In this document: positions 1,185-29,228 of the stretch, one piece after another | Layout: every line of letters starts with the position of its first letter | Numbering within the stretch: the first letter of the stretch is position 1 | IMG/VR virus record: IMGVR_UViG_3300010338_000991 | Strand: one strand, 5' to 3' | DNA length: 29,228 nucleotides | Origin: a virus | Notes under the pieces: model-generated | Databases searched by the model: none | What the model saw: only the letters and a program-made list of their open reading frames with translations | What the model was told of the DNA's origin: nothing | Position numbers and translations under genes: made by a program

Positions 1185-1709
1185 ATGAGAATGATCTGGG
1201 GCTTTGGCGGCGCTAAATTTTCGCAGCCGGATAACGAGCTATATACAAAAACATTCCCGAACGCAATCGGCACAATGTGGGTAGAAGAGGAGTCATCGTC
1301 ATGGATTACACGTAGCCGGAAAAGCGTCAAGGTCGTTCATGGCTATCGCGTATATATGCGCATCCGGTTATTCAATATCGATTTAGGCATGAATAATGCT
1401 AATCAAATTACCGGGCTGTTCAACATTCTATCAAATTGCCACGAAAGCGGGATTATGGTATATCCGCGATATAGCGAAGCGACGGGATCTACCCAAGGAT
1501 ATCTTTGCCATTTAAACGGCAACATCTCTCCGCAGGATATTGCCAATGTTCCGGTCGGGCAATGGATTGATCTCGAGTTTAAGAGCATTAATCTGGTGAA
1601 CCGCATACCAACCGCAAGCGATTATCCGGACTACTATAACTTGATAACCAGCAATGGTGACAACATAACTACAACAAACGGTAAAAACATTACGGTGAGG
1701 AAACACTAA
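1185..1709 (+). CDS. Hypothetical tail or baseplate protein (174 aa)
   Basis: ATG directly abuts the upstream stop; tightly packed in the tail gene block. Confidence 0.4.
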   Translation: MRMIWGFGGAKFSQPDNELYTKTFPNAIGTMWVEEESSSWITRSRKSVKVVHGYRVYMRIRLFNIDLGMNNANQITGLFNILSNCHESGIMVYPRYSEATGSTQGYLCHLNGNISPQDIANVPVGQWIDLEFKSINLVNRIPTASDYPDYYNLITSNGDNITTTNGKNITVRKH

Positions 1710-2473
1710 TGATAGACATAACAATTCAAGATCTTGATCTAATTACATCGCCATCGCTTTTGGCGAATGGTGATATTTTCCACTTTCAAGATGAAAGTGA
1801 TGCATACACCGACAAGGTAGCAGCTCTATCGGCAATAGCAGAATTTATTTTGCGGGAGAAAACCATCCCTTCTGTGGGAAGCGCAATTGTAACCGATACC
1901 GCCACACAAACCTTGACAAACAAAACGCTTACATCGCCTAAGATCAATAGTGCCACTTCGATCACCGCTAATGGCGCGGACATCAACAAACTCTCCGGCA
2001 TGACATCAACCACAGCCGAGCTAAATAAGCTCCATGGCGTGACCGCAAGCACGGCAGAAATCAACCACCTAACTGGCGTCACAAGCAACATTCAAACGCA
2101 AATAAACAATATCGCAAACCAATCTCAAGATGTCACAAGCAGAATATATCATTATTCACCCGGCGTTATTTCTGGAGTAACATCGCAAATCATTAACGAA
2201 GCAACCTTAAGAGCAGAACACGGAATTAACTCAAGTTATAGGGTTGACCCCGATTCAATCACTGTAAGCGTGTATAAGCTTGAAAACGAACGCTGGTATT
2301 TGCTCCCGCCAGCAGTACCTTCCGAAGGATCCGATGGAGTGGTCTTTTTCAACACCACCACAGCAGGAATAGCCAGTCAAACCGTATTAAATAGCATATA
2401 CGTATTGCTCTCAAGCTCAGAGTCTTATCGGATTGTAGTTAACTATAAAGTTTTAGCATTAGCAGGAGTATAA
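1709..2473 (+). CDS. Tail fibre protein with short tandem peptide repeats (Phage_fiber_2-like)
   Basis: Translation shows repeated units TSTTAELNKLHGVTAS / TAEINHLTGVTSN, resembling the phage tail-fibre repeat; start overlaps upstream stop (TAATG). Confidence 0.55.
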   Translation: MIDITIQDLDLITSPSLLANGDIFHFQDESDAYTDKVAALSAIAEFILREKTIPSVGSAIVTDTATQTLTNKTLTSPKINSATSITANGADINKLSGMTSTTAELNKLHGVTASTAEINHLTGVTSNIQTQINNIANQSQDVTSRIYHYSPGVISGVTSQIINEATLRAEHGINSSYRVDPDSITVSVYKLENERWYLLPPAVPSEGSDGVVFFNTTTAGIASQTVLNSIYVLLSSSESYRIVVNYKVLALAGV

Positions 2474-2474
2474 C

Positions 2475-2795
2475 ATGAAACATTTACAGCTCGACCCTAA
2501 TGGAAATCCTATGCCGGTATTTTTCCCCGGCACAAAAACCGCAAACGCAACAATCAAAGTGGATGGCACAGGTGCAAGCGCCGCAACCACAAGTGCAATT
2601 CACGCAACCGAAAACACGGTCGTTCGGCTTCTCGCAGATGCCGATTGCCATATCGCCATTGATACGGCTCCCACTGCCACAGTGGGCGACATCCCGTTGA
2701 CTGCAGGATTGCCAGAGTATTTCGTAATCAGTGCCGGAGCTAAAATCGCGGTTCTTGGCGCAAACCTTTATATTACAGCACACACAGGAGCATAA
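2475..2795 (+). CDS. Hypothetical protein (106 aa), tail region
   Basis: ORF with ATG 2 nt after the upstream stop; Ala/Thr-rich. Confidence 0.4.
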   Translation: MKHLQLDPNGNPMPVFFPGTKTANATIKVDGTGASAATTSAIHATENTVVRLLADADCHIAIDTAPTATVGDIPLTAGLPEYFVISAGAKIAVLGANLYITAHTGA

Positions 2796-2797
2796 CC

Positions 2798-3211
2798 ATG
2801 TTTGACGCAATACTTTCCAACATCGACAAAATGCAGGCTATAATTGTAGCCTTATCTGCGCTTATCGGCGCAATCGTGACATTGGTGATCACGAGTATCC
2901 GTGAATACAAGCGCATACGCAAGGAACTCGCAGCAGAAGAGTTCAAAGAAATTGCTGCACCATTCTGCAAGATAGCCGAGACTGAACCCATGAAGGTGCT
3001 GGCAAATTTGATTAAGCCTCCCGTTGACGATTCGCCAATGATAGCCAACAGCAATGAAGGCAAGGCGCTAATCGTTGGTCAAGCAGCTATCGAGAAAGCG
3101 CAGATAAAGAAGCCGAGCATACTTAAGAAGCTTGGCATCAATAGCGCCGCCGATGCCGTTCCGCTGGTATCGAGCTTGTATAAGCTCATCAAGCCGCTGG
3201 TGAAGAAATGA
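2798..3211 (+). CDS. Membrane-anchored hypothetical protein (137 aa)
   Basis: N-terminal hydrophobic helix (AIIVALSALIGAIVTLVITSI) then a Lys-rich soluble part; stop overlaps the next start (ATGA). Confidence 0.4.
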   Translation: MFDAILSNIDKMQAIIVALSALIGAIVTLVITSIREYKRIRKELAAEEFKEIAAPFCKIAETEPMKVLANLIKPPVDDSPMIANSNEGKALIVGQAAIEKAQIKKPSILKKLGINSAADAVPLVSSLYKLIKPLVKK

Positions 3212-4110
3212 GCTTAGGTCTCGGCTTAGGTCTCGGTCTCGGCTTGTCTCGTGCGCGTGGCGGGGGAGAAACATACACAGATATTGAACTCCCACTAATC
3301 GCAAACATCATTCGTGCATGGTCAACCCGCAGATTGATACCGGATTACAAAGATGGTGTCGCAATTATGGCTGACCGCACAGATCCGATTGGCGACATAC
3401 CTGATGATGGATTCCCGGTAAATTTCAGACCGGATGGAACGATATTGATTCCCGCCGGAGACGATGCTCGTGCTTATGAGCTTCACGAACAACATGGAAT
3501 AGCTGAATCGAAGCTCATCAACCCAGTGTTCGCTAATTGTCCGCAGGTGCTGGCGTCTAATGCCATGAAGAAGGGCTTGGATTGGTCATACAAAGAGACA
3601 GGTTCAGGCAATAATCTATATATGAATCCAGAAGATCCGGAGATTGAGGAGGTGTTTCTTGGCTCGTTTTCGCTAATTGTGTGGGCTTTTCTTGACCGCA
3701 ATAACCAGTCCGTGTTTTACCGAAGAAAGGAAGGAGGAAGTGGAAGATGGAGCATAAGAAGCAACTATGCCGCAGTGAATAGCTTAATATGCCATCTTTC
3801 AGGTGAATCAGACATCATTTTTACTCCAGACGCCGGAAACACATATAGAAACAAATGGGCATCATTTGGATTTGTCATCAATAGAGTTCCAGAAACTGCT
3901 GTTTACACTGTATATTTGAACGGCATCAGTATCGGCACAGGCAATCTTCCCACACCAGCGGCGGTAGGAAGCAACACTTTGCGAATTGGCTCTGGATATT
4001 CAGTCACAAATGCAATAGCCGTCAATGATTTGGCGATATGGGATACAGCCTTATCTGATGAACAGATGAAAGCTGCACACGATGCTATGGCTCCATATTA
4101 TGCAACATAG
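3208..4110 (+). CDS. LamG (concanavalin A-like lectin) domain tail fibre / receptor-binding candidate with N-terminal (LG)n repeat
   Basis: C-terminal motif NAIAVNDLAIWDTALSDEQMKAAHD matches the typical end of Laminin_G_3 domains; N-terminus MSLGLGLGLGLGL. Confidence 0.55.
   Translation: MSLGLGLGLGLGLSRARGGGETYTDIELPLIANIIRAWSTRRLIPDYKDGVAIMADRTDPIGDIPDDGFPVNFRPDGTILIPAGDDARAYELHEQHGIAESKLINPVFANCPQVLASNAMKKGLDWSYKETGSGNNLYMNPEDPEIEEVFLGSFSLIVWAFLDRNNQSVFYRRKEGGSGRWSIRSNYAAVNSLICHLSGESDIIFTPDAGNTYRNKWASFGFVINRVPETAVYTVYLNGISIGTGNLPTPAAVGSNTLRIGSGYSVTNAIAVNDLAIWDTALSDEQMKAAHDAMAPYYAT
3211..3246 (+). repeat. Coding tandem repeat (12-bp unit cttaggtctcgg x2 plus partial) encoding the (Leu-Gly)n tract
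   Basis: Sequence agcttaggtctcggcttaggtctcggtctcggcttg read directly. Confidence 0.6.
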
Positions 4111-4125
4111 GGAAAGGGGTAAATT

Positions 4126-4344
4126 ATGGATTACTTAATATTCGACACCGAGCAGGAAGCAATGGCATATAGCCATGCTGAAGCTGTAAGACATGGACAT
4201 GGTAAACTGAACTCCACTATACAGTATTGGTGGGCATGGCGAGAGACAGTAGATGGGAAATGGGCTGTGCAGTGTCCAGATGGCACGGAAGAAGAACCGA
4301 TTTGGAAACCACTGGAGGTGGAAGATGAAGATGAAATTGACTAA
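4126..4344 (+). CDS. Hypothetical small acidic protein (72 aa)
   Basis: ORF with acidic C-terminus (EVEDEDEID); no recognisable motif. Confidence 0.35.
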   Translation: MDYLIFDTEQEAMAYSHAEAVRHGHGKLNSTIQYWWAWRETVDGKWAVQCPDGTEEEPIWKPLEVEDEDEID

Positions 4345-4627
4345 TACATGGAAACACTTAGGCGTCATGCTATTGCTTGGTCTCGCAGCTTGGGCTTTCG
4401 CTTACTTCGGCAAGGCGCATGGCTTTGGCTGGTTCCCGAATGTGGCAGCGTTTATGGTCACCGTTTATGTTGAGTATCGTCAATGGTCTTTGAGCGGTAA
4501 GCCGTTCTGGACTCTGGTGCGTGAGCGGGGATTCGATACACTCATTGACATCGCTGCGGGAAACCTCGGCTTCTGGCTCGGATACAATCTGCTACTCAAA
4601 CTAACGGCTGGCGGATGGATAGTATAA
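4325..4627 (+). CDS. Holin-like small membrane protein (about 100 aa; ATG at 4325 or 4331)
   Basis: GGAGG shortly upstream of ATG 4325; two to three hydrophobic helices; immediately upstream of and overlapping the endolysin start. Confidence 0.45.
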   Translation: MKMKLTNTWKHLGVMLLLGLAAWAFAYFGKAHGFGWFPNVAAFMVTVYVEYRQWSLSGKPFWTLVRERGFDTLIDIAAGNLGFWLGYNLLLKLTAGGWIV

Positions 4628-4995
4628 TGGCACGGCTATCAAAGAACTTCACCACAGACGAGTTCGCTTGCAAGTGTGGCTGCGGATACGATACGCCTAA
4701 TCCAGAGCTTATCAGAATGCTTCAGGATGCACGTGACCTATATGGCAAGCCAATACGCATCACAAGCGGATGCAGATGCATAAAGCACAATCGCAATGTG
4801 GGCGGAACAGCGAACTCTGCGCACATCTCAGGGATGGCTGTTGACATCGCCACCCCCACCGGTGAATCTCGCTATCTGATAATCGAGTCACTCATGGCAG
4901 CTGGATTCAAGCGCATAGGGATAAACTTCAAACAACGATTCGTTCACGCAGACATAGACGATTCAAAGCCACACCCCACGATCTTTAGCTACTAA
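4615..4995 (+). CDS. Endolysin, peptidase M15 family (alternative ATG at 4627)
   Basis: Motifs FACKCGCGYD, ITSGCRCIKHN, GGTANSAHISGMAVD, FVHADID typical of Peptidase_M15_3 zinc peptidases; small single-domain enzyme. Confidence 0.8.
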   Translation: MDSIMARLSKNFTTDEFACKCGCGYDTPNPELIRMLQDARDLYGKPIRITSGCRCIKHNRNVGGTANSAHISGMAVDIATPTGESRYLIIESLMAAGFKRIGINFKQRFVHADIDDSKPHPTIFSY

Positions 4996-5021: not shown

Positions 5022-5357
5022 ATGATTACCAATCTCAAAAAACACGCCCTCGTAGGCTTTGCCGTCGGGTTTATTTCAGCCATCCTGGTGAATTTCCTTC
5101 CCTGGATGGACAAGGTTCCAGGGCGTCCGGCCAACCCGCAGGTAAACAAGACCTGGATTATTGGGACAGTAGCCTGGATTGGCATTATCCTGGCGTGGGA
5201 ACTGCTGCAGCTCCTAACCAGTAAAAAGAAGAACCAGTACATCAGCAACAAGTGGTTGGACAGCCTGGCTGACATCGTGGTGGGCTGGGTGGCGTTCATG
5301 CTTCCCTGGTCAGTATTGGTGTTGGGCAGTTATGGCGGAAACCTCTTGAGACCGTAA
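5022..5357 (+). CDS. Membrane protein (111 aa, about three TM helices), lysis-associated or moron
   Basis: Hydrophobic segments in translation; lies in a visibly GC-richer patch just after the endolysin. Confidence 0.45.
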   Translation: MITNLKKHALVGFAVGFISAILVNFLPWMDKVPGRPANPQVNKTWIIGTVAWIGIILAWELLQLLTSKKKNQYISNKWLDSLADIVVGWVAFMLPWSVLVLGSYGGNLLRP

Positions 5358-6249: not shown

Positions 6250-6268
6250 TGCCCATCATCTACTCCTG

Positions 6269-6295
6269 ACCGCTCTGCAATACGGGCGGTTTTTT
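6269..6295 (+). terminator. Putative intrinsic terminator for the plus-strand unit
   Basis: accgctc..gggcggt stem (about 7 bp with one G-U pair) followed by TTTTT, 20 nt after the stop at 6249. Confidence 0.4.
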
Positions 6296-6468: not shown

Positions 6469-6897
6469 TCATGATCGAATGTTATTTGTCCACTCTTTTC
6501 TTTCCCACACTCGCATAATGATTGCGTCATTGCATCCGTATCGCTTCCACGCATGAATGCACACAATTTGGCTGTCATCGTTCCAAATCACGCCGTTAAG
6601 CGCATCGAATACACCCTTACATAGATTATCTATGTCTGGTCGCGATGGCTTATATACGCTTCTTTCTCGCAGTTCTGCGATGCGCTTCTTCCCCCACGAT
6701 TTTGGATGTTTCCAAACGAACTCGACAGACACATACAGATCACCGGATAGCGATCGCATGTCTTGAGTGGTTTGCGCCAATGCCATTGCCGTTATCGCTT
6801 TTTGGTAATCGGTTACGGCTTTGCTCTGGTAGCTGTGCTTACCCATGCGAAAGCTTTGCTTTGCTTTCGGCGTGATGTCGAAATATAGGCTGATCAT
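6469..6897 (-). CDS. rusA: RusA-family Holliday junction resolvase (ORF track extends to 6909)
   Basis: Motifs KPSRPDIDNLCKGVFDALNGVIWNDDSQIV typical of RusA; GGAG 8 nt upstream of the ATG at 6897. Confidence 0.8.
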   Translation of the reverse strand: MISLYFDITPKAKQSFRMGKHSYQSKAVTDYQKAITAMALAQTTQDMRSLSGDLYVSVEFVWKHPKSWGKKRIAELRERSVYKPSRPDIDNLCKGVFDALNGVIWNDDSQIVCIHAWKRYGCNDAIIMRVWERKEWTNNIRS

Positions 6898-7060
6898 TTT
6901 CCGCTCCATAGAAAGATCAGGAAAAATATGATGCCTATGCCGGCAGCGATGTTCAGGTGTGGAATGTTCACCCGAAAAACATACGCAATCACCAGCGGAG
7001 CCTCTGCAAGTGTCGCTATCAGCAGACTTATATCTGCTATTTTATGTTTCAATTTCTTAC

Positions 7061-7288
7061 TCATGATTTTCTCCTTTGCATTGCCATGTCTTTATCCGCC
7101 AAAAGCGCGTCCGTAATCTCCTGGAAGTGCTTACCAATCCCATTGCGCTCGTATCCATTCGTTCCAGCTAGCCATGCGTAGAATTGCCGATCACTGATGT
7201 TATGTATCCGGCAAAATCCGGTGATCGAATATCCGCGATCCCGTATCGCCTTCTTTATTTCCATTCCTTGATCTTTTGTTATTCTCAT
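7061..7288 (-). CDS. Small putative HTH DNA-binding protein (75 aa)
   Basis: Start ATG overlaps the upstream stop (TAATG) with GAGG upstream; helix-turn-helix-like segment YSITGFCRIHNISDRQFYAWL. Confidence 0.4.
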   Translation of the reverse strand: MRITKDQGMEIKKAIRDRGYSITGFCRIHNISDRQFYAWLAGTNGYERNGIGKHFQEITDALLADKDMAMQRRKS

Positions 7289-7566
7289 TATCTTGCCTCG
7301 CAATTTTCGCACACGTAATAATTGCCATGATCAGCCACCTGCTTCCATGTATATAGTCTGCCGCATTTGCCACAGCGAGCTATGCTATGCGCTTTGATTT
7401 TTTCGTATTCCTTGCCTAAGTTTTTTAGCGATCTGCGCAAGGCAATTTCTGTCTCTGCGTGTTTCAAACTCGCTCTTATCCTGTGCTTATCAATTAGCTT
7501 TGCTCGGCGGGCAAAATAACCCGCCAGAGCAATTGCGATAATGGTTATGCATATCATTATGATCAT
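7288..7566 (-). CDS. Membrane-anchored zinc-ribbon protein (about 92 aa; ORF track extends to 7608)
   Basis: AAGGAG 8 nt upstream of ATG 7566, which overlaps the RecT stop (ATGA); N-terminal TM helix; C-terminal CGKCG..CENC. Confidence 0.4.
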   Translation of the reverse strand: MIIMICITIIAIALAGYFARRAKLIDKHRIRASLKHAETEIALRRSLKNLGKEYEKIKAHSIARCGKCGRLYTWKQVADHGNYYVCENCEAR

Positions 7567-8534
7567 TTTGAATCTCCTTCTAAACTTGTTTTGTTTTCGT
7601 TCAGCCATGTTTCTACTTCGTCAAGTGCGGCATGGCGTGTCGCGCTCTGGATTTTCGGCAACCACTCTTCTAATTCTTCTCCGGTAGCAAGTTTCGTCAT
7701 TCTTTCAATTAGCTCGACTTGCCGCTCTTTTATTGTTGGTTTTGCGTTCGCACCGCGCAATATCGCGGCGAGATGGTTATGGTATTCATATAGATCATGG
7801 AAGTTCGTGCATTCGGCAATCATGCTACACCCTAAATGTTTTTGGATGCTCGAATGCCTGCGAACCTCATTATCAAAGCCGTCAATTTTGTTATCCACAA
7901 GGTTTCGCATGACGCCCTGTGTCGCTTTCATGAGCAGATCAAACTCTGATTCGCCTGCCGGGGCAGGATCCGGAACCGACTCGAACTCCGCGTCAATCGC
8001 ATCGTGATGCGCGCTTGCTTCCGGCACTTCTTGCGCATCGTTACCAGAAGTAACAAGATCAACAGCCTCTTCATGAGACAGCATGCCAAACACGATATCC
8101 GGGAACAGATCATTGACCGCGTAGCTAATCGCTCGCGCCTTCAGCATGCGTTGCGGGTATTTGCGCCAATTGTCCTTTTTAGCAAGCTCGGCACGGATCG
8201 CGTCTTGCATTGTAAATGTGATCTCTACGGACTCAACTTGGCCATCCCTGCGCTTGCGGCTCATTTTCACGATGCATCGTTCTGCAGTGGCATCAATCTC
8301 ACAGCCATTGTATTCAGGGTGGTTCTTGGCCAGTGCCAACTTGAGATCGGCCTTTAAACTCGGCATGCCGTTGACATTGTAGATATTCATCAGTGCTGTC
8401 GCTGCGTTTAATCCGAGTGCCTGGCCAGCACTCAGAACGAATAGCACGTCAGCAGGGTTCCTGTGAGCATGGAGCCGGCTTTGCGCCAGCTCCTTCGAAA
8501 TCGATTGCAAGGCTACAAGATCGTTCATCATCAT
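7563..8534 (-). CDS. recT: RecT/Bet-like single-strand annealing protein
   Basis: Segment NWRKYPQRMLKARAISYAVNDLFPDIVFGMLSHEEA resembles the conserved core of lambda Bet and E. coli RecT; AAGGAG upstream of ATG 8534; acidic C-terminal extension. Confidence 0.65.
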   Translation of the reverse strand: MMMNDLVALQSISKELAQSRLHAHRNPADVLFVLSAGQALGLNAATALMNIYNVNGMPSLKADLKLALAKNHPEYNGCEIDATAERCIVKMSRKRRDGQVESVEITFTMQDAIRAELAKKDNWRKYPQRMLKARAISYAVNDLFPDIVFGMLSHEEAVDLVTSGNDAQEVPEASAHHDAIDAEFESVPDPAPAGESEFDLLMKATQGVMRNLVDNKIDGFDNEVRRHSSIQKHLGCSMIAECTNFHDLYEYHNHLAAILRGANAKPTIKERQVELIERMTKLATGEELEEWLPKIQSATRHAALDEVETWLNENKTSLEGDSK

Positions 8535-13970: not shown

Positions 13971-14096
13971 AAGCAAATGCTAAGCAAATGCTAAGCAAAT
14001 GCTAAGCAAAATCAAGCAAACCGAAGCAGATAAGATAAGATAAGATAAGATAAGAGTAGATGAGATTAGATGAGATTAGAGGAGATTAGAATAGAC
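13971..14096. repeat. Iteron-like tandem repeat array: AAGCA-containing units at 11/11/11/10/10-bp spacing, GATAA x5, and four 10-bp units (TAGATGAGAT x2, TAGAGGAGAT, TAGAATAGAC)
   Basis: Read directly from sequence; located in the divergent intergenic region upstream of the replication module. Confidence 0.7.
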
Positions 14097-14142
14097 TATC
14101 ACTTTGCTAACGCAAAGATGATATATACACCATGAAAACCGT

Positions 14143-14160
14143 TTTCGTGACGTCACGAAA
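14143..14160. promoter_or_regulatory. Perfect 18-bp palindrome TTTCGTGACGTCACGAAA (candidate operator)
   Basis: Exact two-fold symmetry; overlaps a second palindrome GAAAACCGTTTTC (14134-14146); lies about 45 bp upstream of the TTGACA box. Confidence 0.45.
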
Positions 14161-14203
14161 TTGGTTAAGGCGATGCTGCCGGATCACCAAAATCACATTT
14201 TTC

Positions 14204-14231
14204 TTGACAAATAATTAATGCTGATTATATT
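14204..14231 (+). promoter_or_regulatory. Sigma70-like promoter candidate (TTGACA, 16 bp, TATATT) for the plus-strand unit
   Basis: Hexamers read directly; a TATAAT also occurs at 14244-14249. Confidence 0.4.
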
Positions 14232-14262
14232 GTAATCATGAGCTATAATTTTGATCACGATT

Positions 14263-14306
14263 TTGACATTGACATTGACATCGACTCGATTAACATCGAC
14301 ATCGAT
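14263..14306. repeat. Hexamer array TTGACA x3 in tandem followed by TCGAC/ATCGAC/ATCGAT repeats
   Basis: Sequence ttgacattgacattgacatcgactcgattaacatcgacatcgat, ending 47 bp upstream of the ParB-like gene start. Confidence 0.4.
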
Positions 14307-14352: not shown

Positions 14353-14820
14353 GTGAAGACAAATAAGCTTAAATTCAATCCCAATAATCCTCGCAAATGT
14401 AGTAAAGACAAGCTTGAAAAACTTATGCGCTCAATCGAATCATTCCCTGAAATGATGAAGTTGCGCCCAATGGTTTACGATCCCGAAACCATGTATGTTT
14501 TAGGCGGGAATCAGCGCCTCGCAGCTATTAGAAAGCTCGGCATGAAAGACATCCCGGATGAGTGGACGATCGCCGCCACAGATCTCACCCCAGAACAGCA
14601 AAAGGAATTTGTTCTGCGAGATAATGTGCAGTTCGGCGATTGGGACTTTGAGATGCTGTCTGCTGAGTTTGGCGAATTTGATCTTGAAGAAATGGGCATG
14701 GATATGCCAGAGATAGAGGCAGAAGAGCCATATGTCCCAAGTGAAACTAAAGAAATTGACACAGATATAGCATTTGATCACAAGTGCCCAAAATGTGGAT
14801 TTGAGTTTAATGAATCTTAG
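14353..14820 (+). CDS. ParB-like nuclease (ParB/Srx) domain protein with C-terminal zinc ribbon
   Basis: GGAGG 5 nt upstream of a GTG start; N-terminal KLKFNPNNPRK...MYVLGGNQRLAAIRKLG resembles the ParBc domain; C-terminal CPKCG. Confidence 0.6.
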   Translation: MKTNKLKFNPNNPRKCSKDKLEKLMRSIESFPEMMKLRPMVYDPETMYVLGGNQRLAAIRKLGMKDIPDEWTIAATDLTPEQQKEFVLRDNVQFGDWDFEMLSAEFGEFDLEEMGMDMPEIEAEEPYVPSETKEIDTDIAFDHKCPKCGFEFNES

Positions 14821-15829
14821 ATATAACATTAAAGACATTGCAGATATAGAAAAGACGCATAAAGCATTTTCTACTTTTGCGTGTGGTGGGGGATCGTCAA
14901 TAGGCTACAAACTGGCAGGGATTGAAGTTATTGGAGCAAATGATATTGATCCTGAAATGAAGTGGCACTATACAAAAAACCTTAACCCATCGCTATATTA
15001 TTTATGCCCAATATCTGACATGATATCAATGGAATTGCCAAACGAGCTTTTTGCCCTTGACATATTAGATGGATCACCTCCATGCTCAACTTTTAGCACA
15101 TCTGGGAACAGAGAAAAGGATTGGGGCAAAAACAAATACTTTAGGGAAGGTCAAGCAAAGCAAGTTCTTTCTGACTTGTTTTTTGACTACATAGACCTTG
15201 TCAAAAGGCTACAGCCAAAAGTATCTATATCAGAAAATGTAACTGGAATTATCAAAGGAAATGCTAAATATTACGCCAAAACAATAGTGCAAAAACTTGA
15301 TGAAGCAGGATATGTTACTCAAGTTTTTCAGATAAACGCAGCAAATTGCGGTGTCCCTCAAATGAGAGAACGCGTGTTTTTTATAAGTAGGCGCAAAGAT
15401 ATAGACAAAAAACCACTTGTATTATCACCAAAAGAAAAAATACTTACTGTATGGGATGCTATACACGACATACAGGATTTGACAGATGATGAGATTAGGG
15501 ACACAGCCCCAAATAACACTGACTTGAAATATTGGAACAAAACCAAGCCAGGATGCAGCTATTCAAGCGTTCACGAAAAAGGCAGCTTTTTTTCTTATTA
15601 TAGGCTAAACAAAGACAAACCAAGCAACACTATCCAAGCAAACCATCAATGTTATACTCACCCATCAGAATGCAGAAACCTAACTTTTAGAGAAGTCAAA
15701 AGACTGTCGTCATTTCCAGATGATTACGAAGCAAAAACAGATAACATCGGGAAGTATATGTGCGGAATGAGTGTGCCTCCATTTATGATGTATCAAGTAG
15801 CAAAAGCAGTAAAAGAGCAGTGGCTATAA
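14810..15829 (+). CDS. DNA (cytosine-5)-methyltransferase (ORF track starts at a TTG at 14774)
   Basis: Motif I FACGGGSSIGYKLAG, catalytic PC motif GSPPCSTFS, ENV motif ISENVTG, QxRxR motif VPQMRERVFF. Confidence 0.85.
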   Translation: MNLRYNIKDIADIEKTHKAFSTFACGGGSSIGYKLAGIEVIGANDIDPEMKWHYTKNLNPSLYYLCPISDMISMELPNELFALDILDGSPPCSTFSTSGNREKDWGKNKYFREGQAKQVLSDLFFDYIDLVKRLQPKVSISENVTGIIKGNAKYYAKTIVQKLDEAGYVTQVFQINAANCGVPQMRERVFFISRRKDIDKKPLVLSPKEKILTVWDAIHDIQDLTDDEIRDTAPNNTDLKYWNKTKPGCSYSSVHEKGSFFSYYRLNKDKPSNTIQANHQCYTHPSECRNLTFREVKRLSSFPDDYEAKTDNIGKYMCGMSVPPFMMYQVAKAVKEQWL

Positions 15830-26035: not shown

Positions 26036-26350
26036 GTGGAGGTCTTATTCCGCACAGACCCCGCCGATCCATTCCGAGATAATAACATGAAAACGTCCAT
26101 GTGTCGCCACTGCGAGTTAGACCAAACCTGCGAAAAACTACAGGATTACCCTAAAATCAGCCATCTATCCGCGTGGCTGATTAAGTGGCATTATGAAATT
26201 GAGGCGGGATTTGTGATCTATCCGCGTGGTGGCTCGTGGGAAAACCAATGGCAATGGTTCATCGATGGTCTCGGCATCGTGCGGAACACTGTTGCGCAAG
26301 AAGAAATGCGAAAAGCTCAAGAAGGATCGAAAAAACATGGCAGATTATAG
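26036..26350 (+). CDS. Tail assembly chaperone T-extension (expressed as a -1 frameshift fusion with 25677-26027)
   Basis: ORF in the -1 frame relative to the G gene, overlapping the tape measure start. Confidence 0.5.
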   Translation: MEVLFRTDPADPFRDNNMKTSMCRHCELDQTCEKLQDYPKISHLSAWLIKWHYEIEAGFVIYPRGGSWENQWQWFIDGLGIVRNTVAQEEMRKAQEGSKKHGRL

Positions 26351-28811
26351 CGGAGACCTTAAATATCGCATCACCGTAGATGGCGCAGAGGCGTCACAAG
26401 CTAAGCTTTCCGGTCTCGGAGCTTCGTTCAAGAGTGTCGCTTCGACCGTCGCAGCAAGTGTTGCAGCGATGGTGTCCTTCCGAAAAGCAATCGAGTTTGC
26501 TGGCAATGCAATGGCAAACTACGAGAATGCGATCCGAGCGGTACGCCAGCTTGACGCGACCCTGGTGTCCACCGGCAGAGCAGCAGAATTCACCTCGCAA
26601 GAACTCAAGAATATGGCTTCAGAGCTGCAAAGGCTAAGCAATTTCGGTGATGAAGACATACTGCAGGGCGTAACGCTGCAGCTGCTTCGCTTTGATGCCA
26701 TCGGTAGGGATATCTTTCCACGCGCACAGCAGCTTGTAATTGACCTTGCCGAATCTATGGGCGGTGTAGAAAATGCTGCAAGAACTCTTGGCATCTCTTT
26801 GGCTGACCCGACTCTTGGTCTCACGCGCTTACGCAGAATAGGCGTGGCCTTTAATTCCACACAGGAAGCGCAAATTAAAAACTTTGTGGAGACAGGTAAA
26901 GTAGCTGAGGCACAAGCGGTTTTGATGTCTGCGTTAGAGGAGCGTTTTGGCGGATTGGCTTTGGCGTCTGTATCTGCGACCACACAAATGAAAAATGCTT
27001 GGGGCGATTACTTAGAAAGCGTTGGATCTTCGCTCTCCTTTTTCGATGGAGTCAAACGCGGCATTACTGCAATGTTGGTCAGTGTAGCGGGGGCGCACGA
27101 TGTTACATCGAAATCCGCTCAGCTTGCTGCGCTGGAAACACAAAAAGCTTGGGGTGAGGCAACAATAAACATTGGCAATATTATAGCCGATATATCTACC
27201 GGAGTTGTTGCTGTTATACATGGCGTGATCAAGGCGTTTGATTTTGCCGGGAAGGCGATCCCCACTGCGCTTGGGCTCGCTATGGAAGGAGCGCATTTAG
27301 TCGTTGCGTCTTCAATGAATTCCATCGTTGACCTAATTTTCTCACCAATAGAAGGCTTGTTTAATGATATTGATGCTGTTTATGCTAAAATAACTGGGAA
27401 ATCGCTTGGTATTACCAATGCCTTTGACGCTGTACGCATCGATGTTACTGGTGTAAGGGCAGACATTTCCAGCAGCGCAGACGATCTTTCTTTGTTATGG
27501 ATTGATGTTAAGGAGTTTTATCGCACGTGGGGAGATGTTGCCTCCGGTATCGCGACAGGAAAATTTAGCAACGCAGACGAACAAATTAAATTGCTGCGCG
27601 AAGGCATTGACGCACAGCGTAAGGCAATTGAAAACGGGCTTCTAAACATAGATTTGCCTGAATCAAAAGGCAGCAAGGAAGATCGCGGCGGCATGGGCGG
27701 CGATATTGCGCAAATTACAAACTATTATGATACCATAATGGCATTAAACAATAGCACATCGCAGCAGATCATGGATAAGTACAACAAAATGCGTGCTGCG
27801 CTTGACGAATATTTGCGCGCCAATACCAAAAGCCAAGAAGAGTATCAAAACAAGCTTAGACTTGGTCTAGCAGAAATCGCCAAAGCAGAAACAGCCGAAT
27901 TGGCTGCGGAAAAAGAACGCCAGCTGTCTATGGTAGAATCCTTTGTCAATTCTGTTATCAATCTTAATGCGTCTGAAAAAGATGCCATTGCCAAAAAGTA
28001 TGCGGATATGCGCACAACAGCAGAAGCATTTTATGCGGACGGCTTGATGTCTGAACAAGCGTTTAGCGATGCAATTACACAAATAAACCAAGCAGAACTT
28101 GATGCCATTACAAATTTGGAAGCTAAACGTCTTGATCTGCGCATACAAACGCTTGGTAGCATTCGCGGTTTTGAAGATGAGTTTTACCATGCCAGGATTA
28201 CACAGATTGACGCCGAAACCGAAAAGTTGCGCGAAGCAGGATTAGCAGAGATAGAAATTGAAGCATGGAAGCTGCAGCAGATAGCTGAACTTGAAACTGA
28301 AATTCACCAGCGCAGAATTGACCAAATGTCTGAATATGAGCGCTTTGTTCTGGGTTCCGATCAGCGGATAATGAACACGCTGGAAGGCTCTCTTGCCAAT
28401 TCACTCGCAAGCATGATTTCCGGGACCAAATCCGCATTAGATGTGTGGAGATCTCTTTGGGCGAATGTTGCGCAAGCCGTTATTGCAGAAATCAGCAAAA
28501 TTATCGTAAAGGCACTATTCGCCAACACATTGCTCAAGGGCTTGGGCATGATCGGCAATTTTTTCTTCCCCGCAGCTGGAATAATAACACCAGTTGTAGC
28601 GCAAGGCGCAAATTTGCTTAGCAACAATCCTATACACAACACGCCAACAATCCCAAGCAATAACAACAATGTCGTGCAATTGATGAGGAAAATAGATTCA
28701 TTAATTGAATCGATAGAAAATAACCCGCCACAAATATATACTCAATTAATAGAAGGCGTTCCGCTCAATAATGCAGTGCGCAGGGCTTCGGTGATGGCTA
28801 ATGAGTTATAA
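26337..28811 (+). CDS. Tail tape measure protein (about 824 aa; ORF track starts at 26226)
   Basis: Long Ala/Glu/Lys/Gln-rich protein after the chaperone pair; hydrophobic Gly-rich C-terminal segment. Confidence 0.75.
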   Translation: MADYSGDLKYRITVDGAEASQAKLSGLGASFKSVASTVAASVAAMVSFRKAIEFAGNAMANYENAIRAVRQLDATLVSTGRAAEFTSQELKNMASELQRLSNFGDEDILQGVTLQLLRFDAIGRDIFPRAQQLVIDLAESMGGVENAARTLGISLADPTLGLTRLRRIGVAFNSTQEAQIKNFVETGKVAEAQAVLMSALEERFGGLALASVSATTQMKNAWGDYLESVGSSLSFFDGVKRGITAMLVSVAGAHDVTSKSAQLAALETQKAWGEATINIGNIIADISTGVVAVIHGVIKAFDFAGKAIPTALGLAMEGAHLVVASSMNSIVDLIFSPIEGLFNDIDAVYAKITGKSLGITNAFDAVRIDVTGVRADISSSADDLSLLWIDVKEFYRTWGDVASGIATGKFSNADEQIKLLREGIDAQRKAIENGLLNIDLPESKGSKEDRGGMGGDIAQITNYYDTIMALNNSTSQQIMDKYNKMRAALDEYLRANTKSQEEYQNKLRLGLAEIAKAETAELAAEKERQLSMVESFVNSVINLNASEKDAIAKKYADMRTTAEAFYADGLMSEQAFSDAITQINQAELDAITNLEAKRLDLRIQTLGSIRGFEDEFYHARITQIDAETEKLREAGLAEIEIEAWKLQQIAELETEIHQRRIDQMSEYERFVLGSDQRIMNTLEGSLANSLASMISGTKSALDVWRSLWANVAQAVIAEISKIIVKALFANTLLKGLGMIGNFFFPAAGIITPVVAQGANLLSNNPIHNTPTIPSNNNNVVQLMRKIDSLIESIENNPPQIYTQLIEGVPLNNAVRRASVMANEL

Positions 28812-29228
28812 ACTTGTTTACATTGATCACAATGATTACGAGCACACTTTTTATAATGTGCTTAATTTTAGCATTGATCCTATACAAGCTAATACAGACA
28901 ACATTTTTACTTCATCCGGCAGAAAGCTAAGCATAACAATCCCCTATGATGCTTCCGCCATAAACGCATTCCACAATAACGATCAGCCGAATGAAATATA
29001 TCCGGAATATTTAGCAGGGCACTTTAGATTCTTTAAGGATAACGAAGTAATTTTTATTGGCATGGCAAAAGTTACATTTATCGACATTGATGAGCAGAAT
29101 GCAGAGATACAATTTAGGATTTCAGACGCTCTTGATCTTTGGATCGATTTAGCCAAATCAACAAACTTTGATGTAAAGGCTGCGGAACAAAAAGTGATAC
29201 ATTTGCGACCATCAACCGGAGATTATAC
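28801..29228 (+). CDS. Tail protein, 5' part (ATG at 28801 overlapping the tape-measure stop; runs off the window end and continues at 1-1184; full product about 494 aa)
   Basis: Open frame from ATG 28801 with no stop to the window end; the last 127 nt equal bases 1-127 and the frame matches ORF 93-1184; position immediately downstream of the tape measure gene. Confidence 0.5.
   Translation, partial: MSYKLVYIDHNDYEHTFYNVLNFSIDPIQANTDNIFTSSGRKLSITIPYDASAINAFHNNDQPNEIYPEYLAGHFRFFKDNEVIFIGMAKVTFIDIDEQNAEIQFRISDALDLWIDLAKSTNFDVKAAEQKVIHLRPSTGDY
29102..29228. repeat. Terminal overlap copy 2: identical to 1-127
   Basis: Same as above; unique genome length is therefore about 29101 bp. Confidence 0.85.

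Follow-up and report, generated by a model that had tools for sequence, protein, structure and literature searches.

A fixed-length Leu-Gly leader at the edge of a putative exchangeable head cassette in an uncultured phage

The DNA analysed here, IMG/VR record IMGVR_UViG_3300010338_000991, comes from an uncultured phage and is 29,228 nt long; "the window" below means this whole stretch. In its late operon, an open reading frame (ORF) at 3208-4110 encodes the protein that we call the head, in which a short Leu-Gly leader precedes a lectin-type body, and the gene of a small partner protein follows directly downstream. Comparison with related loci suggests that the leader forms the constant edge of a cassette exchanged between phages, with the following features:

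3208..3270, + strand: constant N-terminal leader MS(LG)5L-SRAR-GGG, residues 1-21 of the head (AlphaFold2 model and sister loci)
3212..3242, + strand: DNA of the Leu-Gly tract, GGTCTCGGN hexamer units, 12-bp period x2.1 (TRF, blastn)
3271..4107, + strand: ConA/LamG-type beta-sandwich body, similar to the GH54 catalytic domain (AlphaFold2 model)
4126..4344, + strand: gene of the 72-aa acidic, Trp-rich partner, directly downstream of LamG-type heads
3243..4305, + strand: variable cassette, made of the head body and most of the small partner gene; unrelated sequence in sister phages

Sister phages were retrieved by means of the fibre gene at 1709-2473, and their flanking genes encode proteins 89-100% identical to those of the window. 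In the sister phages with these flanks, tblastn found neither the LamG gene nor the 72-aa gene: the slot is filled by unrelated ORFs behind an identical leader, which begins MSG(LG)5(A/S/T)HRK(V)GG or takes the form of an LSRAxGGG variant, and each of these heads has a small downstream gene of its own (~60-84 aa). The same leader stands before unrelated bodies in twelve loci (L020, L023, L025, L026, L027, L030, L046, L048, L053, L062, L070 and L073). At least six unrelated bodies, of which two resemble leucine-rich repeats (LRR-like), share this one leader, a pattern of modular specificity-domain exchange. The head types distinguished are:

289-aa head type: L020, L023, L025
383-aa LRR-like head type: L026
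280-338-aa LRR-like head type: L027, L046, L048, L073
250-aa head type: L030
272-aa head type: L053

The limits of the exchanged segment were located by blastn. In nine related loci a similarity of 85-92% extends over ~2.1 kb and ends at window position 3242 in eight of them, while in the ninth (L026), which shares the LSRA variant of the leader, it stops at 3268. Similarity to the related loci returns at 4305-4388, and this conserved right flank includes the last ~7 codons of the 72-aa gene (EVEDE..), which overlap the start of the next gene; it also contains, ~10 nt upstream of that start, a Shine-Dalgarno-like GGAGGTG that we read as the putative ribosome-binding site of the next gene. Two other loci (L009 and L011) carry LamG heads ~32% identical to that of the window, and there the break falls at 3242 and 3243. 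When the LamG family was compared by hhalign with three other head types (B, D and E), the leader alone aligned. Judged from these alignments, the segment 3243-~4305 is very probably an exchangeable cassette of head body and cognate small gene, and the Leu-Gly leader would be its constant, length-constrained left boundary, that is, a recombination boundary rather than a length-variable linker. Scans of the other head types and their small genes with Pfam, PHROG and PADLOC were negative. Head B has a body similar to the C-terminal end of gp31 of Gordonia phage Murp, whose gene lies three places downstream of one annotated as minor tail protein.

Two observations concern individual heads. The LRR-like heads (L027 2540-3382, L046 6381-7232, L073 3945-4823 and, in the oriented contig, L048 5233-6249) vary in the number of their ~21-residue VITGDITGMxLTYLxL repeats, with ~4 in some loci and ~7 in L048. 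In L070 (3381-4034), a leader-bearing head turns after ~95 residues into ATP-grasp-like-looking sequence (..LIEINPRFPAW..) near the contig end, a switch that could reflect either a chimeric assembly or a recombination junction.

The partner gene is closely tied to the head. A homologue of the 72-aa protein lies immediately after the LamG-type head in 12 of 12 contexts; it is 56-77% identical across them and better conserved than the head itself. Its family is of similar rarity to that of the head, with 29 clusters among 5.8 billion proteins, and scans of IMG/VR and JGI with this protein returned few loci. Between the partners of different head types hhalign detected no homology. The 72-aa protein fits no known family; in it and its homologues certain Trp, Cys and His residues never vary (YSH, QYWW, WAV.CP), and a short motif F(D/E)TE.EA recurs in otherwise unrelated partners of other head types.

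At the other edge of the cassette, the N-terminus of ORF 3208-4110 reads MSLGLGLGLGLGLSRARGGG, and TRF found a perfect 12-bp repeat of 2.1 copies at 3212-3236. The initial annotation, made from the letters of the window, had correctly noted both a Leu-Gly run, which is (LG)5L, and a 12-bp repeat, which encodes part of it, and had proposed that this in-frame repeat could expand or contract, change the length of a linker and thereby tune host range. Such slippage, for which the perfect repeat and its minority codons GGT-CTC would speak, appears very improbable. The tract lies at the extreme N-terminus and not between domains; five hydrophobic-x units were present in all 15 leader-bearing loci inspected, across at least six head types, and 13 contigs of 20-50 kb encode the head protein of the window without any change. 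The comparison of copy number across related genomes that the annotation had recommended thus gave an invariant count, and differences among relatives, the mark of slipped-strand contingency, are absent from the Leu-Gly tract in the loci compared. As for the DNA, its periodicity is matched by 3.9% of synonymous recodings of the peptide, and because these are equally periodic, the repetition in the DNA largely follows from that in the peptide and is only mildly unexpected given the peptide. Distant members keep the length of the leader with non-repetitive codons and other residues.

The wider head family (~30 clusters) presents at its N-terminus ~3-5 alternating hydrophobic/small units followed by a Gly-rich hinge, as in LGLGLGLG, GMGMGMG, FGYGYGFG, LNLDLRLG or IGINLRVG. 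Gly-Gly follows the leader in most members, and the leader codons differ from one member to another. Selection acts on the pattern and the length of the peptide, not on the DNA repeat. In the predicted structure the 20-residue leader appears disordered, with a predicted local distance difference test score (pLDDT) below 50 at residues 1-4 and 12-18 and a mean of 48-49 over residues 1-20. A literature search found no report of a Leu-Gly leader in phages. A role as signal-arrest-release (SAR) or signal anchor was considered and rejected, the leader having only 11-12 apolar residues and lacking the N-terminal positive charge. In the Mu-like phage locus L007 (10001-10060) the leader is MLNQLNQLNRLNGLGAHRKVGG, most Leu-Gly units being replaced at the same position by a 9-bp CTGAACCAA repeat.

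The body behind the leader bears out the LamG-type signature that had been placed in the C-terminal part of 3208-4110: Pfam Laminin_G_3 (PF13385) matches residues 152-286 with 35.8 bits against a gathering score of 27.6, and it matches 29 of the 31 head family members. A first AlphaFold2 (AF2) model, built with 10 homologues, had a pLDDT of 56 and was poor in the N-terminal half; it was superseded by a model built with 31 sequences (pLDDT 90.8, pTM 0.87), in which residues ~22-300 form one compact beta-sandwich. This is a jelly roll of the ConA-like lectin/glucanase superfamily, and the structure prediction suggested by the annotation as a check for a carbohydrate-binding fold therefore returned a lectin-type one. 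Among known folds it is most similar to the GH54 catalytic domain, as in alpha-L-arabinofuranosidase B (PDB 1wd3), and to a solved tailspike, gp15 of the cyanopodophage Pan3 (PDB 9vyh), with which the head has 12% sequence identity and which is not known to carry a Leu-Gly leader. An arrangement with an N-terminal anchor domain and a separate C-terminal LamG domain was rejected in view of the single compact fold: the N-terminal ~100 residues belong to the GH54-like sandwich. Used as a profile against 1.84 billion representatives, the first ~125 residues matched only 43 proteins, ~30 of which are 276-303 aa long with the same architecture as the head; a search of PDB sequences with the N-domain profile gave nothing useful.

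Despite the likeness of fold to GH54, the head family shows no match to Pfam ArabFuran-catal (PF09206) at E <= 1 in any of its 31 members, ArabFuran-catal (~11-99) being matched only in the distant multi-repeat proteins P0032, P0038 and P0042. Glu is nowhere invariant, D143 and D274 are the sole conserved acidic residues, and CBM42 is lacking. The body is probably a non-catalytic lectin and not an enzyme, and the head most likely binds a glycan of the host envelope without cleaving it. Two relatives (P0036 and P0030) have no leader; in them the lectin unit follows Fn3/CHB_HEX domains, and their genes adjoin tail-spike-like or tail-fibre-like ones. Four giant proteins of 1600-2900 aa (P0031, P0033, P0035 and P0043) each contain 6-10 stretches that match the profile of the N-terminal ~100 residues of the head; in the two that were compared with Pfam, a T9SS CHU_C domain was assigned to P0031 and Big_9/cadherin-like domains to P0033.

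The exchange of receptor-binding protein (RBP) heads together with a chaperone is already known. In P2 (H/G), Mu (S/U), lambda (Stf/Tfa) and T4 (gp37/gp38), the tail-fibre tip and its cognate assembly chaperone form a cassette. The cassette of the window shares with them a constant N-terminal part, an exchangeable C-terminal part that carries the specificity, a small gene downstream that is swapped along, sharp recombination boundaries and conserved flanks. It differs in that the constant part has only ~20 residues, as against a long shaft, in that the heads have unrelated folds, in that the small genes match no Tfa family in Pfam or PHROG, and in that it lies among membrane and lysis genes, its place on the virion being putative. 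In SP6, K1-5 and K1E, tailspikes are mounted via a short N-terminal segment on an adaptor protein, and there too different, exchangeable heads follow a short conserved N-terminal segment amid conserved flanking DNA; unlike theirs, the leader of the window is a Leu-Gly repeat and is found in phages of several structural types. What appears to be new is that a 20-residue Leu-Gly leader is the sole constant part, with unrelated folds behind it, and that the cassette resides obligately in the lysis cluster of different kinds of phage.

The same architecture of conserved N-terminus, variable body, cognate small downstream gene and sharp boundaries is also found in polymorphic toxin/immunity loci. 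The head could accordingly be imagined as an effector, or as an agent of superinfection exclusion, in which the leader, with the Gly-Gly site found in most members, serves for delivery, the body is the effector and the small protein protects against it. We consider this improbable: the bodies are binding folds, lectin and LRR-like, in which Pfam detected no toxin or enzyme domain and no domain for delivery or secretion; PADLOC returned no match; the 29-kb genome encodes neither an exporter nor a C39 peptidase, and no secretion apparatus is present; and the genes lie inside a late structural/lysis operon.

The fibre gene by which the sister phages were retrieved lies upstream of the cassette in the same operon:

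1709..2473, + strand: tail-fibre-like gene, 254 aa: N-terminal part, motif TQTLTNKTL, three repeats of 13 aa, variable C-terminal domain
1973..2089, + strand: three tandem 13-residue repeats xTAELNKLxGVTS in the fibre shaft (self-match test)

In PHROG its protein weakly matches families of virion structural proteins and of tail fibres, and a comparison with PDB sequences gave nothing useful. The short tandem peptide repeats noted in the initial annotation proved to be three in-register 13-residue units at residues 89-127, with a self-match score of 44 against 21.7 +/- 3.3 for shuffled sequences, none of 500 shuffles reaching 44. The fibre family is large (>1000 homologues, and >100 clusters at 70-92% identity). 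Three units are present in 97 of the 120 best matches, and close relatives with near-identical ends have 4, 5, 6, 6 and 10 units, so that the 13-aa (39-nt) repeat ranges from 3 to 10 copies. The expansion and contraction expected of the Leu-Gly tract were thus found in the fibre repeat, where copy number differs among relatives as in slipped-strand contingency. Proteins P0049, P0051, P0052, P0056 and P0075 illustrate such variation among otherwise near-identical fibres, and in sister phage L030 (6472-6692) blastn found additional 39-nt copies of window 1983-2058. Sequence variability, measured as entropy, peaks in the C-terminal part of the fibre, at residues 131-150, 171-180, 191-210 and 231-240. 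The fibre varies by point and indel changes in its C-terminal loops as well as by shaft repeat copy number; the copy numbers suggest a shaft of variable length, and such a shaft with a variable tip fits a receptor-binding fibre. In distant relatives the same repeat is joined to Collar (PF07484) or Mtd_N domains; a scan of genome contigs with the fibre gave remote repeat matches only and no host. As a whole, the proposal that these genes determine host range is plausible and is now indirectly better supported, by the tailspike-like lectin fold of the head, the cassette exchange and the hypervariable C-terminal loops of the fibre.

The remaining genes that bear on the role of the head are its neighbours in the late block:

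26226-28811: tape measure, 861 aa
~28803 across the window ends to 1184: 494-aa tail gene
2475..2795, + strand: p106, a 106-aa beta-rich protein, ~95% conserved in sister phages
2798..3211, + strand: TM137, a 137-aa single-pass membrane protein with a basic tail (..LIKPLVKK), candidate holin, with homologues upstream of the head
4331..4627, + strand: TM98, a 98-aa multi-pass membrane protein (MKLTNTWKH..), holin-like candidate, after the head/small-gene pair
4615..4995, + strand: endolysin, Peptidase_M15_3 (Pfam 84.4 bits, PHROG 894 endolysin)
5022..5357, + strand: 111-aa multi-pass membrane protein, last membrane-protein gene of the lysis cluster (sister-locus conservation)

After the 494-aa gene come, in order, a 174-aa gene, the fibre, p106, TM137, the head, the 72-aa gene, TM98, the endolysin and the 111-aa gene. 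The + strand block from the tape measure through the lysis genes is uninterrupted until a terminator at 6268-6291, and no promoter-like or terminator-like site was found inside it before that point. The start of the head overlaps the stop codon of TM137 (ATGA). A programmed frameshift that would join TM137 and the head in one protein was considered and rejected, since GTGAAGAAATGA is not a canonical slippery site; a termination-reinitiation overlap would be the simpler reading. A TM137 family member stands directly upstream of the head in most contexts; in L007 it does not, and a homologue of p106 directly precedes the LamG gene. The head and its small gene almost always stand directly before a TM98 family member. 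Matches of TM137-family relatives to holins were sub-threshold only (Phage_holin_4_1, E 0.016; Holin_LLH, E 0.007), and in L072 (2992-3786) and L073 (2992-3785) the gene right after that of a TM137-family protein encodes an M15-type endolysin, without an intervening head gene, which is the best hint that 2798-3211 encodes a holin. The 111-aa protein is 100% conserved in L020, L021, L023 and L025 and absent from L027. A lipobox scan near the lysis genes gave no o-spanin candidate, and no defence-system model of PADLOC matches any component.

For the function of the head we favour, as about an even bet, an exchangeable envelope-binding module with a cognate partner, serving as a receptor-binding or adhesion head displayed on the virion. 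The constant leader, fMet-Ser-(Leu-Gly)5 with a basic patch and a Gly-Gly hinge behind it, precedes the lectin-type beta-sandwich; its strand of alternating hydrophobic residues and Gly, fixed in length and carried on a flexible hinge, would dock any head onto one constant phage partner, and in cassette exchange it would double as the homology arm on the left. The small gene would encode a head-specific folding or assembly partner in the manner of tail-fibre chaperones, and the displayed head would act beside the repeat-bearing fibre. A role on the virion is favoured because of the position in the late operon, the Fn3-fused relatives near tail genes and the likeness to Murp gp31.

Several observations weigh against a place on the virion. 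The module is found without exception within a cluster of membrane-protein and endolysin genes, and its only constant neighbours appear to be membrane proteins; in the window the head does follow the tape measure, 494-aa, 174-aa and fibre genes in one operon, but a membrane protein intervenes, and in L073 and L007 it comes after the endolysin and not beside recognisable tail genes. The leader is shared by phages whose structural modules are unrelated, namely a siphovirus, a phage with a Mu-like head (L007), one with a P22-type portal (L009) and phages encoding ART-PolyVal proteins of giant size and a PriCT primase, and because of this spread no conserved docking partner on the virion is evident. 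The model shows the head as a compact monomer in which no trimerisation element is obvious, the fibre is already a plausible RBP, and the 72-aa protein has no Pfam, PHROG or PDB match to known fibre chaperones, its resemblance to them being limited to position and co-exchange with the head.

These same contexts suggest that the head might belong to the lysis module, as an envelope-binding accessory held by its leader on holin-like membrane proteins or in the membrane, where it would target or time lysis, or mask receptors on lysed cells and debris to spare the progeny; its specificity would then track host surface variation as that of an RBP does. The residence of head and small gene within the lysis cluster in every context and in several gene orders agrees with this, as do their co-inheritance with the TM137 and TM98 families across unrelated structural modules, the adjacency of a TM137 homologue to the endolysin in L072/L073 with its faint holin matches, the ATGA overlap, which suggests translational coupling of the head to TM137, and the single-domain endolysins. 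We nevertheless consider such a role rather unlikely. It has no family match and no precedent; the endolysin type near the head varies (M15_3, Amidase_2, glucosaminidase or a ~200-aa type) while the leader stays constant, so that docking on the enzyme is unlikely; and the leader, at 11-12 residues, is too short for a signal or SAR anchor and does not have the charge pattern of one. The nearest relatives of endolysin and terminase belong to phages of Gram-negative hosts; the hosts therefore look Gram-negative, and a separate wall-binding lysis subunit is not expected. The likeness to the Pan3 tailspike and the Fn3-fused relatives beside tail spikes favour the virion. Slightly less likely still is a broader version, in which the leader would be a universal plug peptide, not described before, that mounts structurally unrelated heads on a conserved membrane-protein partner of the lysis cluster or inserts in the membrane, the heads forming a new class of lysis-associated, envelope-targeting proteins that spreads across morphotypes by cassette exchange. 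In principle, a strand of alternating L-residues and Gly could adopt a gramicidin-like beta-helix.

If the leader is a self-sufficient docking tag, it would constitute a natural plug-and-play interface in which ~20 residues mount lectin, LRR-like and other heads. The flanking DNA would already act as homology arms, which would be useful for host-range engineering, and such a tag would account for the sharing of specificity modules between uncultured phages that differ in their structural modules. A tempting misreading is corrected as well, the short in-frame repeat being a conserved, length-constrained element and putative recombination boundary, not a hypermutable tract. The constant linkage to the lysis cluster raises the question of whether some envelope-binding heads act at lysis and not at adsorption.

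Finally, some features concern the genome as a whole. Positions 1-127 and 29102-29228 form an exact 127-nt direct repeat, and because the first 127 nt recur exactly at the end, the window is the complete, circularly closed genome of a siphophage, ~29.1 kb in size. It encodes small and large terminase subunits, a portal, a major head protein and a tail completion protein. Searches of GenBank phages with the window DNA and with the LamG protein found nothing similar, and no integrase was seen among the window ORFs scanned. The regions 14774-15829 and, on the - strand, 6469-8534 contain the genes of a DNA methyltransferase, a RusA resolvase and a RecT-like annealing protein. A cluster of tandem repeats at 13971-14306, with an 11-bp unit x3.6 at 13971-14010, an AGATA / 10-bp unit x6.3 at 14028-14090 and a GACATC-type repeat at 14263-14306, sits in an AT-rich gap with leftward early genes on one side and, on the other, the rightward block beginning at 14353, and looks like an origin/iteron or regulatory region.

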